NCBI GenBank assembly: GCA_965644265.1
Contig: OZ286468.1
Span: 70,866,001-70,930,000, forward strand
DNA length: 64,000 nt
Direction: 5' to 3'
Source: Glycera tridactyla
Lineage: Eukaryota
Positions 1 to 48,000 of this stretch are shown here, piece after piece (the stretch's first letter is position 1; each line of letters opens with the position of its first letter). The position numbers were made by a program.

Positions 1-3000
1 TAGTATAGTTGCAGATTTTATACATAGTCTCTGGGGTTATTGGAGCATTATGGACCATCAATACCTGCTGGCCCCACTCTTCATGGAACCTCCTACCTAG
101 CATCCATCTTGCCCAAGTAGGGAGAAGTTTCAATCATCTAGAGGATGACATCCAACATACTCACTGTAAGATTCAGGTATAAAACTATATTTCGAAATAC
201 ACTATAATGATGTACAAATGACATGGTGGAAAAATGCATTTTCTTATTGATCTGAACACGCATTTTCAAAAATATTGCAAGGCAGTTTCTAATAGTACTG
301 GTTTGATTACTCTCAGCATCGAAATATTTGTGTGAAATGTTCCCAGTGGTCAGATGACAAGCTCTCCATTAGGTGGGAAAATGATAGGGGAGGATATGGA
401 ATAAAAGCATCTTGCAGGTGCCGTTGCCGTGGCGATGTGTTCATCTTCATGACTATACCTGGATGACTGTGACTATGAAGTGTCGATGCATCTTACTGGT
501 GTATAGTCCCATGTATATCTCAGGTGTAATATGTGAGATGCACATCTATATGATGACCTGTTGATTTTATCAACACAGAGTTGTCCACCCAAGTAGTGGC
601 CTACTTTGGCTTGTCTATTATAGTTCATCTCAACGATACAGTATGATTGAGATTGAATAACATCTAAAAATAAGCTATCTGTGTTGTTGCACCTCATTGG
701 ATGAATTGGAGGTCATTAATTTACATTTCTTTACCGTACTTGACCTGATGATTTCAAAGAACATTTGATCAATTTCTATTTGGAAATATTGAGAAAACGA
801 ATTTTTCTATTGAATTTCATGGAAGAAGAGTGTGTTTGGGAGAATCTGATCTGGTGTCTACCATGTTCGATCAATAAACATTGGTAAACATTAGGGACAG
901 TAGAGGTGTGAGTGTGCTGATGGCTATCAGTGAGCACACGTCAAGGTGTGAACGGATGGGTGAGGTGTATATCAACGATGCTACGATTGATATCATCTGT
1001 TGATTGCAGTCCCATCTGGCCCACATACTTTCTCCATCCCATGGCATTATCCGCACCCTGGGGTACCCTGGGCCAGCAACCCTGGCTACTCACCTTCATT
1101 GGTACAGTGAAACCTGTCTTGGGAGACCACCCTTTTTGGGAGACCACCCTCTAATTGGAGACTGCTCTTTATCGGTTCTTCTCTATAGTTAAATATACCT
1201 CCAATGAGAGACCACCTGTCTTGAAAGACCGCATTTTGTTGGCGTTTGGGGCGGTCTCCCAAGACAGGTTTTACTGTATTTGTGAGTCCCTTGGTGAGTC
1301 GCTCATGCAGGTGTGAAGTCTTATCCTATATATTTGGGATTTGACTTTTATGAAATATTCAAAATTCAAAGACATTTCTACATTCCATATCACAATATAT
1401 GTAATATTGGTAACTACTTGGTGATAAAGAGACACACAAGGAACACACAAAACACATACAGTATGAGAATAAACCAAATCTAATCTCAGTCTCCACATCA
1501 CAAGTGGGTTTTGCAAATGGTTGAACATGAAAAGGACTGGATGGTCCACAGGGGTCTCTCAGTGTGCAGGGCGTAGAGTGTGCTCCTGGGTTGGCTAGTC
1601 AGCTGCTGTTTCATGGCAGCCTGCATGGCTCAGTGTCCAGAACAGCTTGCTCCTATCCAAAGTAGTCAGTTGCCACCATGCAGAACGCTCAGTTTCAAAT
1701 CCACAAAAAGAAAATCAGATGATCACTGAGTTTGCAATTTGAACATTCCCTTGTTGTTCCATGAAATATACTTTCATTGTACTTGGCTGTCTGCGTATCT
1801 CATTCAAGTCAAAGTAGCCCTGAGATATATAGGTTTTAATGATTGGTTTGCCTCATAGACATGGAGTCTTCATCTCAGCCAATGAGTGCAGCAGCTCTGA
1901 AGATGTAAATCATGATCATCCATGCAATGATGAACTTTTATTCACTTTTTTCCATTTCCATCTTTTGTAGGTGAGTTGCAGTGTGGATTTCAACACATTC
2001 ACAGTTCTCAGATAAGTCATTTCATCAACTGTTCATATGTTTTCTGTGTAATTTTTGTCTTGCCAGCCTCCTCTCATAAATTGTCTACTTGTGGGATAGT
2101 GATGACATTGAGTAAAGTTGATCTTATGGATTGGAATGTTTTTCCAATTTGTTATCAATTCTGTGAATAAACTAGAGTCAAACCTGTATCAAATGAGCAC
2201 TCTTTGGAAGGCAAAAAGTGGTTGCAAAGGAGAGGTGGTTTTCGATTCAGATGTTCATATGGCAGGTGATTTCTTATCACATTGGTAGCCTAATGCAAGT
2301 TGGACTGTTACCATACCATACTTCAGCCATTGTAAAATTTGCTTATGATTACTTCCCATTGATGTTGGATGAGAATTCATTTTTGACCTCCATTTGGTGA
2401 TATATAATTACTTCAAAACATGGAATGAATATGGTGTAATGTTGGTCTGATTCGATGAATATCAAATAAAGAGCATCATAGTTGAGTGAGCATGTTTAGC
2501 ATTCAACCATGATGCTCTGCCACAAGCATCTGATAAGGAGGCCAACTTGTGATGAACTCCACCGAACACACCTCCTGTTCAGAAGCTGTAGAAATGTCTG
2601 ATTTATGTGAGTCTTTGTGCTTCATAGCAGCGATCATATCAATCCATCTAGCTGCATTGGAATGCATATATCTGAATTAATGTTCCTTCACTGACCATAC
2701 AGAATGGCTCATCATTATTTGGTTTGAAAATGAAGGACAACAGATAACGATTTAATGTAGTGTTGAAATTCATGTACCCTCTGTGCAATATATCACAGGA
2801 TACGGCCTAAATTGTACTTTGTATGTGTCCTTATAGGGCTACATCTTCAGCACCCACTTTATCTTCATGTAAGTCAATTCTGAATTTGGATGTTTAGTTA
2901 TTGATGGTTGATCCGATTTTGACGAGATATCAGATGATTAAATAAACCAAATGCCATATTTAGGATATACTCTATTTGCTGCCAAGTATACTCCCAGGGT

Positions 3001-45000: not shown

Positions 45001-48000
45001 AAAATATGGTGTTTTTCAGATGCTGACATATGTTTATGGAATTGAGTTTTTTGGGGCAGTGCTCATTCTGCAAGGTGCTTCTTTGTTGCAGCGTTGGCTG
45101 TGTCGGCCATTTTGACTGGAAGGAATGGTAAACAAGATGGCTTCCAATGTCACTCGAAAATGACCAGGGAAAAGAGACTATGGTGCTGCTCATAATTAAA
45201 ACACACTATGAGAGTTCAAAGTGAACATCTGTCTTCCTGTTCTATCCTCTTTCTTCCTATATTTTTACAAAGAGCCATGCATAATTGCAGAAAAAAGTCA
45301 GGCAAGTCGGATGAAAGTATTCTGCCCATCCATTATAGTAATGTTGACTCCACTCTTCCATGCAGGCTTGCAGTTGTGAGGCTTTCAACTTTGCTTCATG
45401 ACCCGATTCATAGCAGTTGATGGCTGATCTTAGCACTTGTAACAAATCAAGCCAAGTCCCGATACTACTACTACCAGTTTGTGTGCCTGACATTTGACGT
45501 GATTTTATCTCTGCCGAGTGTTCCGGTATCACCCCTGCCAGTAAGTGTTACTCGTAGACTGAGCCATGAAATTGAGCACAGATGAGTGTAACCGAGGTGT
45601 CAGAACAAGTGTAAACATTGCACAGAAGAACTCCAACAAAATTGTTCAGATTTTTTTCACTCCTGGGCAATATTTATGTGTTTCATGATTGGTACAAATT
45701 AGGATTACTTTTCAACTATACCCCATTCACAGGGTCTAATTGTTAACATTGGTACATTTTCTTTGGCATGTCGAAGTTGACTTTCTCAGAAAATTATGCT
45801 AGACTCAACCACATTTTGCGCACTACAGTAAAACCTGTCTTAAGTGAAAAGTCATGGGACCAAATTTTTCTTTCACTTAAGACAGGATTTTGCTTAATGC
45901 AGGACAATCATAGTGAGAAAAAACATCCGGGCAGACCGTGGGGCATGTGCTTAAGACAGGATTTTGCCTAGCGCAGGTTTACTCTCAAGCAGGTTTCACT
46001 GTACTTGCAATGTTATGGGTGTTTTTTTTTTTAAACTACAGCTACAACCTGTCATTTATGGGCAATATTCACATCAACTCACATTTCAGTTTTTGTAGAA
46101 GACTTCAGGATCAGATAAAACATGATTGAGATGTGAAAGAGGAAAAATTTGAATGACACAATACTGTCATACTTACCCCAAATCAAATTTTCATTTCATG
46201 AATGGATCAACAATGGTGAATGGGTCGAGGGGGAACAGTCCATTTTCTATTTTGTTCACTTTTTCTGCTGACTAATATGTTTTGTTGAAAAAGGAGAAGT
46301 AATCAAGCTGACCTTGATTCAAATCGCGAGATTGTGTTCCACGCTATTGTTGGGATAATGATCCAGACATGACCAGGTATGAATGGCTGCGATGTAAAAA
46401 GACATCTGCAACTGTAAATGTAAAAAGACATCTTCGCGTACCAGATTAATTCATATGTCTCACTGTGGCAAGACTTTTCGAATAATATTTCTGCCAGTGA
46501 GTGATTTCTAAATTCATGTAACATTATAGTTGTGGATAATATTGGATTATGGGTTTTGGCATTTCTGTTTTGCTTGGCATCTGGATGGACTGTCACCATC
46601 AAGTATTGATGGGGAAGAATGTATGAGAGGTGGGGAGCATTAGCTTCAGCATTGCCACAGAGTATTGGGTTGCGTTTCACTTCATTTGTTGAGCTGATTA
46701 TTATTATTATCTATTCTCTTCTCAGTGGGAAGCATGACTCCAGCATACTGAATGAGATGGAGAAAAAAATGGAGTCTCACATTCTGACATTTCTCAGTTT
46801 CCTGATTATTAGGTGACCTTATCAGGTGAACATTCAAGATTCATAATCTCCAACAGTTTAACTGCATTTCATACTTATTGGGTGGAAATTAAACCAATGT
46901 CACTCTTTCATTTTAACTCACACAGTGTACAATTCTGATGTGGGCAGGAAAGTTTTCCTCTTCTCCCTCTCACATTCCATGTGATTTTAGTCAGTGAAGT
47001 AAGGCATTCATCTATATATCCTACCATAGACTTACCATAATTTTTAGTCCAAGTCTGCATTGGTATACATCCTTTATGGTCACCTCAATAGTTGTCATAT
47101 GCAGACCTCATTGTATTTATCCCCATCCTCCAAACTTTAGTGCTGGATACCACTGGAAAACTGATGAAACACTGTTGAACTGCTTCTTCATGAGAAATTG
47201 TCCCGAATTATAAAAGACAATCGAGAAATTTGCTGAAAAACTTGACTTTTACAAAACTGGATCTTGATGATATCACGCAAGAGGTGCACATTTGTATGAG
47301 CTATAGATACAGACAAATATGTGATATCAGACTTGTCATTTTCTCTGCAATCCCAGGGTGGAGCACACTGCAGTCATTGATACAAGATGACAGTAAATGA
47401 CCATTCCTAATTGCGCAAGTGTATAGTTTGCTTCTTTGTTCATTCCTTCAAGATTTTCATCAAAGGTAGAACCCGGCAGAGTGACAGAACACATAAAATT
47501 ACATCCTCTGCATTTGCCTAATGAAACTGATATGAATTAATGGCATCCTGATCAGAGATAGTTCTCCTAATTTTGTCAGAGAGGACTATTTCTGATGAGA
47601 TTAGGCACAATTATACTTGTCATCGATCTTATTTGTGCTTTGTTGTAGGTTGTTGCAATTGCGGCAATTGCTGTAGCTAGCCCGGGGACAGGCCGTCCAT
47701 TGTCCAAACACTCAGGCGGGTCAAGAAATCAGTGACCCAGTATGCATAATTGCAGGAATGTGAATTAGCATTATATCCCAACAGGCCATTATGCAGGTTC
47801 TCCTGCAGGGGATGGGAAACCAACAGCCATTTTGGATGGGTCCTCTTATTAGTTTTATGCATATATTTTGTTTGAATCAAACTTTATCTGCTCTCCCTTG
47901 CACTGACCATAAATCAAATTCACAGAGAAAACAAAATTGAAAAGGATGCTGAAATACATTTGACCACTCAGCGTGATGGGTTGCAGGTGGCCGTTCACAA

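Follow-up and report, generated by a model that had tools for sequence, protein, structure and literature searches.

The window analysed here is a stretch of 64,000 nucleotides (nt) from Glycera tridactyla (GenBank assembly GCA_965644265.1, contig OZ286468.1, positions 70,866,001 to 70,930,000 of the forward strand). It carries nine copies of the word CAGATRAGT on its plus strand and none on its minus strand. This word is the donor consensus CAGGTRAGT with A in place of G at the first intron position (+1), and its copies tend to stand a short distance behind sites at which an acceptor and a donor are juxtaposed, as in recursive splicing. We tentatively suggest, from the sequence, that CAGATRAGT occupies the donor place of short recursive-splicing exons (RS-exons), where it would be donor-like for exon definition and unable to complete splicing. 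The original prediction, made by eye, had proposed that non-cleavable U1-binding sites may be favoured along the sense strand of a long intron, either for exon definition or for protection against premature polyadenylation (telescripting). The link to recursive splice sites was absent from it and is new here.

An exact search of both strands placed the copies at 2009, 4744, 5684, 8323, 8428, 19522, 37790, 41757 and 45579, three of them being CAGATAAGT and six CAGATGAGT. The nine coordinates and the zero on the minus strand found by eye were thereby reproduced exactly, and the hand estimate of about 0.6 copies per strand turned out to be the order-0 Markov value. Over Markov orders 0 to 6 between 0.58 and 1.56 copies are expected on the plus strand, with Poisson probabilities of nine or more from 1e-8 to 4e-5. 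Allowing for 54 tests by Bonferroni correction (27 donor variants, each on 2 strands) left P at 1.8e-5 for order 3 and 2e-3 for order 6. Dinucleotide-preserving shuffles (n = 100) gave a mean of 1.72 copies with both strands summed and a maximum of 5, so that nine or more were reached in 0 of 100. Strand bias and enrichment both hold within the window when counted on the two strands against a Markov background, and we regard the strand-biased excess of CAGATRAGT as confirmed, a real and statistically robust feature. The consensus donor CAGGTRAGT has 2 copies, at 19471 and 37740, both on the plus strand; the earlier remark that the true donor was seen only at two recursive-type sites is borne out.

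How unusual is such a word among all comparable words? To rank it we masked 4063 self-similar bases and considered nine-mers with one R/Y position. By strand difference CAGATRAGT ties for about fourth place among 565,820 patterns, and the three patterns above it are of low complexity (two T-rich, one resembling a TCA repeat). By Poisson probability it is 30th of the 369,464 patterns occurring on the plus strand, and the best 25 of these consist of homopolymer runs, words from the core of one dispersed repeat, and words that resemble microsatellites. In the unmasked window 41 comparable patterns occur at least nine times on the plus strand with none on the minus strand, and 32 show the converse on the minus strand; a 145-bp satellite is the source of nearly all other 9:0 patterns there, and was rejected as a source of CAGATRAGT. 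Some further plus-only nine-mers outside repeats were observed, each in unrelated contexts, namely TTGAGAAAY (8:0), TGTCATTYT (9:0) and TTCAYTTTT (10:0), and their bias may reflect the T-rich composition of the sense strand or other sense-strand signals. A run of 25 G at 30469-30493 heads the list of over-represented nine-mers by overlapping counts.

CAGATRAGT is one exact word rather than a graded family. With all eight other consensus positions matched, the +1 base on the plus strand is G in two cases, A in nine, and C or T in none (0:0 observed on the two strands against 0.5-0.6 expected), while on the minus strand the same match gives 0 for every +1 base. Of all 26 words that differ from the donor consensus by one substitution, only that with A for G at +1 stands out (9:0), the next highest plus-strand count being three, for CAGGARAGT and CAGGTRATT (3:2 each). 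Sequences with A at +1 and 7 of the 8 other positions matched number 15 on the plus strand against 11 on the minus strand, which is no clear excess. The strand bias emerges with word length, from GATRAG (46:44) through GATRAGT (13:5) and AGATRAGT (11:1) to CAGATRAGT itself.

The position of the copies relative to AG/GT sites, where the slash marks a potential splice junction, gives the second part of the evidence. All three AG/GTGAGT sites with a pyrimidine tract on the plus strand (1969, 19472 and 37741, with 13-17 of 20 pyrimidines) carry CAGATRAGT downstream, closing units of 41, 51 and 50 nt. If nine motifs are placed randomly, the chance of this three-site pairing is about 1.9e-7 analytically, and it appeared in 0 of 2,000,000 Monte Carlo placements. 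At a fourth good site, 15420 (AG/GTAAGG, 16 of 20 pyrimidines), the 7-of-8 variant CAGATAAGA closes a 35-nt unit. Three weaker AG/GT sites also precede motif copies, 8405 before 8428 (24 nt), 41711 before 41757 (47 nt) and 4697 before 4744 (48 nt). An AGGT giving a unit of 41-51 nt lies upstream of 5 of the 9 copies against a background of 4.6% (P = 2.3e-5, for an interval chosen after the data had been seen), and an AGGT at 20-60 nt upstream of 6 of the 9 against 15.4% (P = 7e-4).

The same association is seen from the side of the recursive-type sites, since AGGTRAG is followed by AGATRAGT within 120 nt in 4 of 11 cases on the plus strand and in 0 of 5 on the minus strand. As a control we relaxed the word to AGAT[AG]AG; an AGGT precedes it by 20-60 nt at 8 of its 17 plus-strand places and at 3 of its 18 minus-strand places (binomial P = 0.002, Fisher test between strands 0.075). 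For the GT-type word AGGT[AG]AG the corresponding number on the plus strand is 0 of 11. The six later copies all lie within 8 kb past a strong recursive-type site (nominal P = 0.003), but the cut-off was post hoc and this candidate association is not relied on.

What lies between the two ends? The sites are juxtaposed acceptor-donor pairs within a putative long intron on its sense strand, as recursive sites are. At the place where an RS-exon would have its functional downstream GT donor, CAG/AT is found instead, after 41, 51, 50 and 35 nt. In the 250 nt that follow 1969 and 37741, no GT sequence does better than 5-6 of 9 positions, compared with 8 of 9 for the mimic, and site 19472 has GT candidates only at 151-225 nt downstream. 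The interiors of the units are mutually unrelated in sequence within the window, and only the two ends are common to them; in five units folded, RNA structure did not exceed that of shuffles (z from +0.26 to -0.78). Unit length is not a multiple of three in 4 of 7 units, and all 7 hold a stop in at least one frame. One unit, 19474-19524 (51 nt), has a length divisible by three, and its reading frame after a phase-1 intron would be open. As far as motifs can tell, the layout of pyrimidine tract, AG/GTRAG, a 24-51-nt unit and the mimic is that of a recursive splice site with the anatomy of a cryptic RS-exon.

A repeat could in principle have distributed such a word, as the original prediction had itself allowed. 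In a BLAST search of the nine 409-nt contexts against the window, 0 of 17 non-self matches cover CAGATRAGT, and the flanks of the nine copies resemble each other about as much as random window positions do (mean local score 8.6 versus 8.5 upstream and 8.9 versus 8.4 downstream). A more sensitive search showed that copy 4744 sits within a diverged element at 4663-4799 (62.7% identity to 1104-1236) that resembles a short interspersed element (SINE-like), and that three other SINE-like copies aligned with it lack CAGATRAGT at that place. On the window BLAST, the flank controls and the family alignment we rejected a repeat origin with respect to repeats recognisable within the window: no copy of the word derives from the consensus of a repeat. 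The stretch also includes an assembly gap (18579-18729). Its 300-nt flanks share no overlap (best local score 9, a 9-nt chance match), continuity over it can be neither demonstrated nor excluded, distances spanning it are estimates, and its unread letters could hide more copies of CAGATRAGT.

Which strand is transcribed? A crude exon search gave 21 candidates on the plus strand and 11 on the minus strand. One of them, at 62116-62221 on the plus strand, is a probable coding exon for the beginning of a discoidin domain (about 35 residues). Its 40 PDB matches, without exception discoidin-domain proteins, align with it starting at the domain's first cysteine (best E 1.2e-4). For the 50-codon open reading frame around it (62073-62222), 9 proteins were found among 11 candidates, 5 of them with kinase and F5/8-type-C domains. 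The four that bear names come from two freshwater mussels, a nemertean and a chiton, and each is called a discoidin domain-containing receptor in at least one source; BLASTP identities were 32/46 and 29/44, or 66-70% to mussel and nemertean discoidin domain receptors. Pfam matched 0 of five short candidate exons; among these was the 34-residue discoidin exon, whose length falls below what the model needs. The stretch 62222-64000 yielded no continuation of the domain, and a second discoidin exon considered at 62269-62385 was rejected, having no PDB match. The gene model is accordingly a single exon, with no spliced model joined to it.

Because this plus-strand exon encodes the start of a discoidin domain, we conclude that the plus strand is the sense strand of a discoidin-domain-receptor-like (probably tyrosine kinase) gene. 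The same strand has more T than A in 16 of 16 bins of 4 kb, and A[AT]TAAA poly(A) hexamers number 53 on it and 75 on the minus strand. The exon, the composition and the hexamers together support the earlier assumption that the plus strand is the sense strand of a long intron. Most simply, the 62 kb upstream of the exon would be the gene's long intron (at least about 62 kb), probably ending there. Coordinates of the features are collected in Table 1.

Table 1. Positions in the window of the CAGATRAGT copies, the AG/GT sites that precede them and related features
Feature	Position	Strand	Description
Recursive-type site 1	1949-1976	+	17 of 20 pyrimidines, AG/GTGAGT, AG at 1969-1970
CAGATAAGT	2009-2017	+	Closes the 41-nt unit 1971-2011 opened at site 1
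Weak AG/GTCACT, 48-nt unit, CAGATGAGT at 4744-4752	4697-4752	+	7 of 20 pyrimidines; inside SINE-like element 4663-4799
CAGATGAGT	5684-5692	+	No AG/GT in the 130 nt upstream scanned; followed directly by TAG/GTGGGT
CAGATAAGT	8323-8331	+	Followed directly by AGAT/GTAAGT; first of a donor-like cluster
AG/GTAAGA, 24-nt unit, CAGATGAGT at 8428-8436	8405-8436	+	13 of 20 pyrimidines
Recursive-type site AG/GTAAGG (AG at 15420-15421), 35-nt unit, CAGATAAGA at 15454-15462	15400-15462	+	16 of 20 pyrimidines
Assembly gap (N)	18579-18729		793 nt from the nearest motif copy; 743 nt upstream of site 19472
Recursive-type site 2	19452-19479	+	Tract, CAG/GTGAGT, AG at 19472-19473
CAGATAAGT	19522-19530	+	Closes the 51-nt unit 19474-19524
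Donor-like cluster, 52 nt	29561-29612	+	TAGATGAGT, GAATAAGT, TAAGTAAGT, TAG/GTGAGT (TAGGTGAGT), TTAG/GTGAAT (TTAGGTGAAT), AATGAGT
Recursive-type site 3	37721-37748	+	Tract with 15 of 20 pyrimidines, CAG/GTGAGT, AG at 37741-37742
CAGATGAGT	37790-37798	+	Closes the 50-nt unit 37743-37792
Weak AG/GTCAAT, 47-nt unit, CAGATGAGT at 41757-41765	41711-41765	+	12 of 20 pyrimidines
CAGATGAGT	45579-45587	+	No AG/GT upstream; pyrimidine tract ending CCAGTAAGT about 40 nt upstream
Probable coding exon, start of discoidin domain	62116-62221	+	Acceptor ttcttcctgtgtttgttcacAG/, donor AAG/GTAAGG

If the copies do belong to recursive splice sites, then we can ask: What would a donor with A at +1 do there? Matching the donor consensus at 8 of 9 positions, the mimic could be recognised as a donor by the 5' splice-site machinery, with the U1 small nuclear ribonucleoprotein (snRNP) coming first. 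This recognition would define the small unit across the exon, and the recursive acceptor would be activated. Joining of the upstream exon to the unit would then regenerate a true donor (exon/GTGAGT). With A in place of the catalytic G at +1, the mimic would be unable to complete splicing to an AG acceptor, and the regenerated donor would therefore be the only way forward. As the sole usable donor it would keep the unit, which is mostly frame-shifting or stop-containing, out of the mRNA. The copies without an upstream AG/GT (5684, 8323 and 45579), which lie in or near donor-like clusters, may be further landing sites of the same machinery.

Published work gives this scheme a setting. RS-exons are described as being of about 50 nt and flanked by a downstream donor, and as having to be recognised and then skipped, their inclusion being dangerous; their exclusion is explained by a stronger regenerated donor that outcompetes the weaker donor of the exon (PMC8605326). 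The exon-definition model requires a donor downstream of each recursive site (PMC6110457). U1 particles bound away from the cleaved donor can rescue exon inclusion (PMC4822034), and since engineered U1 can promote exon recognition from uncleaved positions, the step in which the mimic would define the unit is plausible. Of the two roles first proposed for the word, exon definition has thus gained anatomical support from copies 41-51 nt past three strong sites, and telescripting has gained none. Within the papers on recursive splicing that full-text searches covered, and to that extent only, nothing describes RS-exons whose donor place is filled by an AT-type mimic. The nine-mers occur as text in 840 papers, and the 25 of these that were listed all seemed unrelated from their titles and abstracts.

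A number of points weigh against this reading. Recursive splicing at these sites is read from motifs, and an antisense AG/GTGAGT with 13 of 20 pyrimidines at 24228 indicates that motifs alone yield false positives. Three copies (5684, 8323, 45579) are without an upstream AG/GT, two further copies have poor acceptors (7 of 20 pyrimidines at 4697), and one unit is just 24 nt long. Both the 41-51-nt interval and the list of strong sites were picked after the data had been viewed, and the whole signal comes from one intron of one genome. A change from G to A at +1 of ordinary donors usually leads to exon skipping, so exon definition by such a donor is perhaps poor. The same change can permit the first catalytic step and stall the second, which would harm the transcript.

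The start of the gene adds a further uncertainty. An in-frame ATG at 62073 adds to the discoidin exon 15 residues, with a hydrophobic stretch, that resemble a short signal peptide, although a pyrimidine tract would translate alike. This ATG could be the translation start, in which case the upstream 62 kb would be an intron of the 5' untranslated region or, less likely, would be untranscribed.

Predicted pairing with U1 is also weak. Duplex energies, computed against the U1 5' end, were predicted at -5.4 to -6.3 kcal/mol for CAGATRAGT compared with -14 for the consensus, and about 1,500 to 4,000 windows per strand pair with U1 as well as CAGATRAGT or better. Moreover, the predicted energy is the same whether A, C or U stands at +1, although enrichment is confined to A. 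On these energies we rejected plain U1 affinity as the cause of the exact nine-mer or of the preference for A. The choice of A points to one of three things: an origin by transition from G, the particular standing that A has at +1 in the major spliceosome, as in AT-AC introns, or a reader able to pair with this base.

It is useful to set the other explanations beside the proposal of an uncleavable donor mimic. According to the first of them, which was the second role named in the original prediction, U1 lands on copies scattered along the sense strand and thereby holds back premature cleavage and polyadenylation in a long intron, with no special tie to recursive sites. The restriction of the motif to the sense strand, the fewer poly(A) hexamers on that strand (53 versus 75), the three copies without an upstream AG/GT and the donor-like clusters at 8323-8436 and 29561-29612 all agree with telescripting, but we consider it unlikely. 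The copies are not nearer to poly(A) hexamers: the next A[AT]TAAA follows them at a median of 1309 nt, where random positions give 870 nt (nine sites, a weak test), and 82% of random nine-site sets have a median as small as theirs or smaller. Graded U1-pairing potential shows no sense excess, with 1462 sense versus 1474 antisense windows at -6 kcal/mol or below and 308 versus 270 at -8 or below, and the 7-of-8 variants (15 versus 11) give no clear one either. Telescripting also leaves the 41-51-nt spacing to AG/GT unexplained, and the deficit of hexamers may follow from the excess of T over A.

The accompanying claim that such sites would act without creating cryptic splicing is too strong, because cleavable GT donor-like words adjoin several copies, for example AGAT/GTAAGT at 8333 and CAG/GTAAGA at 8404. 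The region 8300-8445 on the plus strand, with two motif copies and two GT donor-like words, has a predicted fold of -42.7 kcal/mol (z -3.02; 1 of 200 shuffles was as good). In this fold AGGTAAG at 8405 pairs with CTTACCT at 8386, which resembles the U1 5' end, and the second motif copy falls in the outer stem. The other cluster, 29561-29612, is partly a 16-nt tandem repeat and lies about midway between sites 19472 and 37741.

The copies could also be relics, former true donors (of RS-exons, or cryptic ones) that were killed by the commonest one-step transition, G to A at +1, and are now functionless. We find this likewise improbable. It would explain why A, the only transition product, is found at +1 (A 9, C 0, T 0), and why copies lie behind AG/GT sites, where the GT donors of fly RS-exons are located (PMC8605326). 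However, the eight other positions are intact in all nine copies, and the 7-of-8 class, which neutral decay should fill, stands at 15 versus 11. The supposed parents are also rarer than the relics, with CAGGTRAGT present only twice on the plus strand.

A third group of explanations makes the word a conditional donor, in which A at +1 is read by a variant U1 small nuclear RNA (snRNA) with U opposite +1, or is converted by adenosine-to-inosine editing (AU to IU, read as GU). We hold it to be quite unlikely. Equally doubtful is the switch that it would bring about, by which the animal could either remove the intron silently by recursive splicing or insert a small exon that separates the signal peptide from the discoidin domain. 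If it were true, the units would be RS-exons with a donor that is dead by default and convertible to a perfect one. The preference for A is exclusive even though U1 pairing scores A, C and U alike, and the other positions are at consensus, as would be expected of a site that reading or editing makes into a perfect donor. In human cells, loss of variant U1s altered the use of recursive donors starting with A (PMC13172311). Against this, the window has 0 Rfam matches at gathering thresholds and no U1 gene within it, the five folded units are without the unusual structure that editing needs, and G at +1 is required for catalysis regardless of which U1 variant is bound. ADAR also disfavours a G immediately 5' of the edited A, as in CAGATRAGT, more than any other neighbour.

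CAGATG and AGATAAG resemble known transcription-factor sites, and the word was picked by eye after looking, so that a DNA-level factor motif (E-box CAGATG or GATA-type AGATAA) or a chance pattern selected post hoc has to be weighed. We judge it very unlikely. In 6 of the 9 copies there is GATG and not GATA, and the cores are strand-symmetric and unenriched (GATRAG 46:44, AGATRA 71:67). An orientation-blind site would give a 9:0 split with a two-sided P of 0.004. The GATA or E-box interpretation was rejected on the symmetric, unenriched cores, the strand split and the lack of GATA in two thirds of the copies; GATA-site frequency, which the original prediction had named as a possible sole cause, does not account for the word. 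A pattern found by chance is opposed by P of at most 2e-3 after the 54-test correction and by the AG/GT link, which is a separate signal.

Finally, ATRAGT behind a consensus exon side is the form of U2-type AT-AC donors, and AT at an intron start within a donor-like consensus is indeed present nine times as CAG/ATRAGT. That the units are real small exons spliced from CAG/ATRAGT to AC acceptors is nevertheless highly improbable, for although AT-AC is given as the third commonest junction class with 0.12% of junctions (PMC13149111), nine donors in 45 kb far exceed that frequency, the units open with a perfect donor right after the acceptor, and 4 of 7 unit lengths are frame-shifting.

The window contains several repeat families and remnants of mobile elements, which we list for completeness. 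The SINE-like repeat is dispersed over at least 14 places, for example 1104-1236, 4663-4799, 10916-11090 (minus strand), 51380-51560 and 56940-57160. It has a repeated GAGACCACC core, often behind ACAGTGAAACCTGT, and its word AGACCACC occurs 10 times on the plus strand and 4 times on the minus strand. A second family is present at 19561-19760, 2173-2258, 44811-44992, 45824-46006 and other places, the copy at 19561 beginning 39 nt past motif 19522. An element of about 1.4 kb has two copies, 37815-39226 and 42371-43866, with about 90% identity at their starts, each containing about 7.5 units of the 145-bp satellite plus a 31-bp repeat. The first of these copies opens 17 nt beyond motif 37790 with a palindrome (ATACCCCGC...GCGGGGTAT).

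Retroelement remnants were also detected. One, at 52565-54419 on the plus strand, is Penelope-like and in sense orientation; a GIY-YIG domain (Pfam E = 1.5e-6) is encoded in its open frame of 409 codons, for which 151 relatives were obtained at E of 0.001 or below, several of them also with reverse-transcriptase domains. A 183-codon open frame at 33867-34418 on the minus strand has a weak RVT_1 match (Pfam E = 0.006, below the curated cut-off) and is probably a fragment of a long interspersed element in antisense orientation. An ACC/ACA-rich stretch of low complexity at 19656-20221 is open in several frames on both strands, with translations rich in Thr, Ser and Pro and a 24-nt tandem repeat; the one frame tested had no Pfam match.

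If the proposal of an uncleavable donor mimic is true, a signal that recruits recognition without completing splicing would remove the risk of RS-exon inclusion by design, and exon definition and end cleavage would be separable in nature. Recursive splicing, known mainly from flies and vertebrates, would extend to a lophotrochozoan-type animal. The proposal can be tested by a single base change, and it offers a countable signature for any long-intron genome, namely a pyrimidine tract, AG/GTRAGT, 35-55 nt and CAG/ATRAGT. A pattern restricted to this single intron would be a mere curiosity.

How does this arrangement compare with known systems? With the telescripting axis of U1 and poly(A) signals it has in common that the sense strand of a long transcription unit bears donor-like sequences and is the poorer of the two strands in poly(A) hexamers. 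Telescripting relies on ordinary GU-containing donor-like sites of graded strength, whereas here a single exact non-GU nine-mer is enriched, and its placement shows no relation to the hexamers downstream. Pseudo-5' splice sites and decoy exons, such as U1 trapped at a pseudo-donor upstream in ER-alpha and those of intron retention, likewise engage the machinery unproductively (PMC6002489, PMC6097662). They repress or delay a neighbouring site, while the mimic proposed here would switch an acceptor on and then give way. With exon-specific U1 particles the proposal shares that U1 at an uncleaved site can promote recognition of the upstream exon (PMC4822034). Those particles contain snRNAs engineered to pair perfectly with an intronic target of choice, in contrast to the natural and mismatched CAGATRAGT.

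U2-type AT-AC donors and variant U1s share with our word the A at +1 in an otherwise donor-like sequence (PMC13172311). In the human variant-U1 work the A-type dinucleotide is at the recursive donor itself, and here it is at the end of the putative RS-exon. Close relatives are the recursive sites with RS-exons of Drosophila and vertebrates, which likewise place an acceptor-donor pair far inside a long intron and let a unit of some 50 nt with a donor-like end follow it (PMC8605326, PMC6110457). As in known RS-exons, the interior is not common to the units, and the units are mostly frame-breaking. The known RS-exons described in these papers end in a functional, weaker GT donor that is used when the ratchet-point donor is mutated, whereas the units of G. 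tridactyla end in AT within an otherwise perfect donor.

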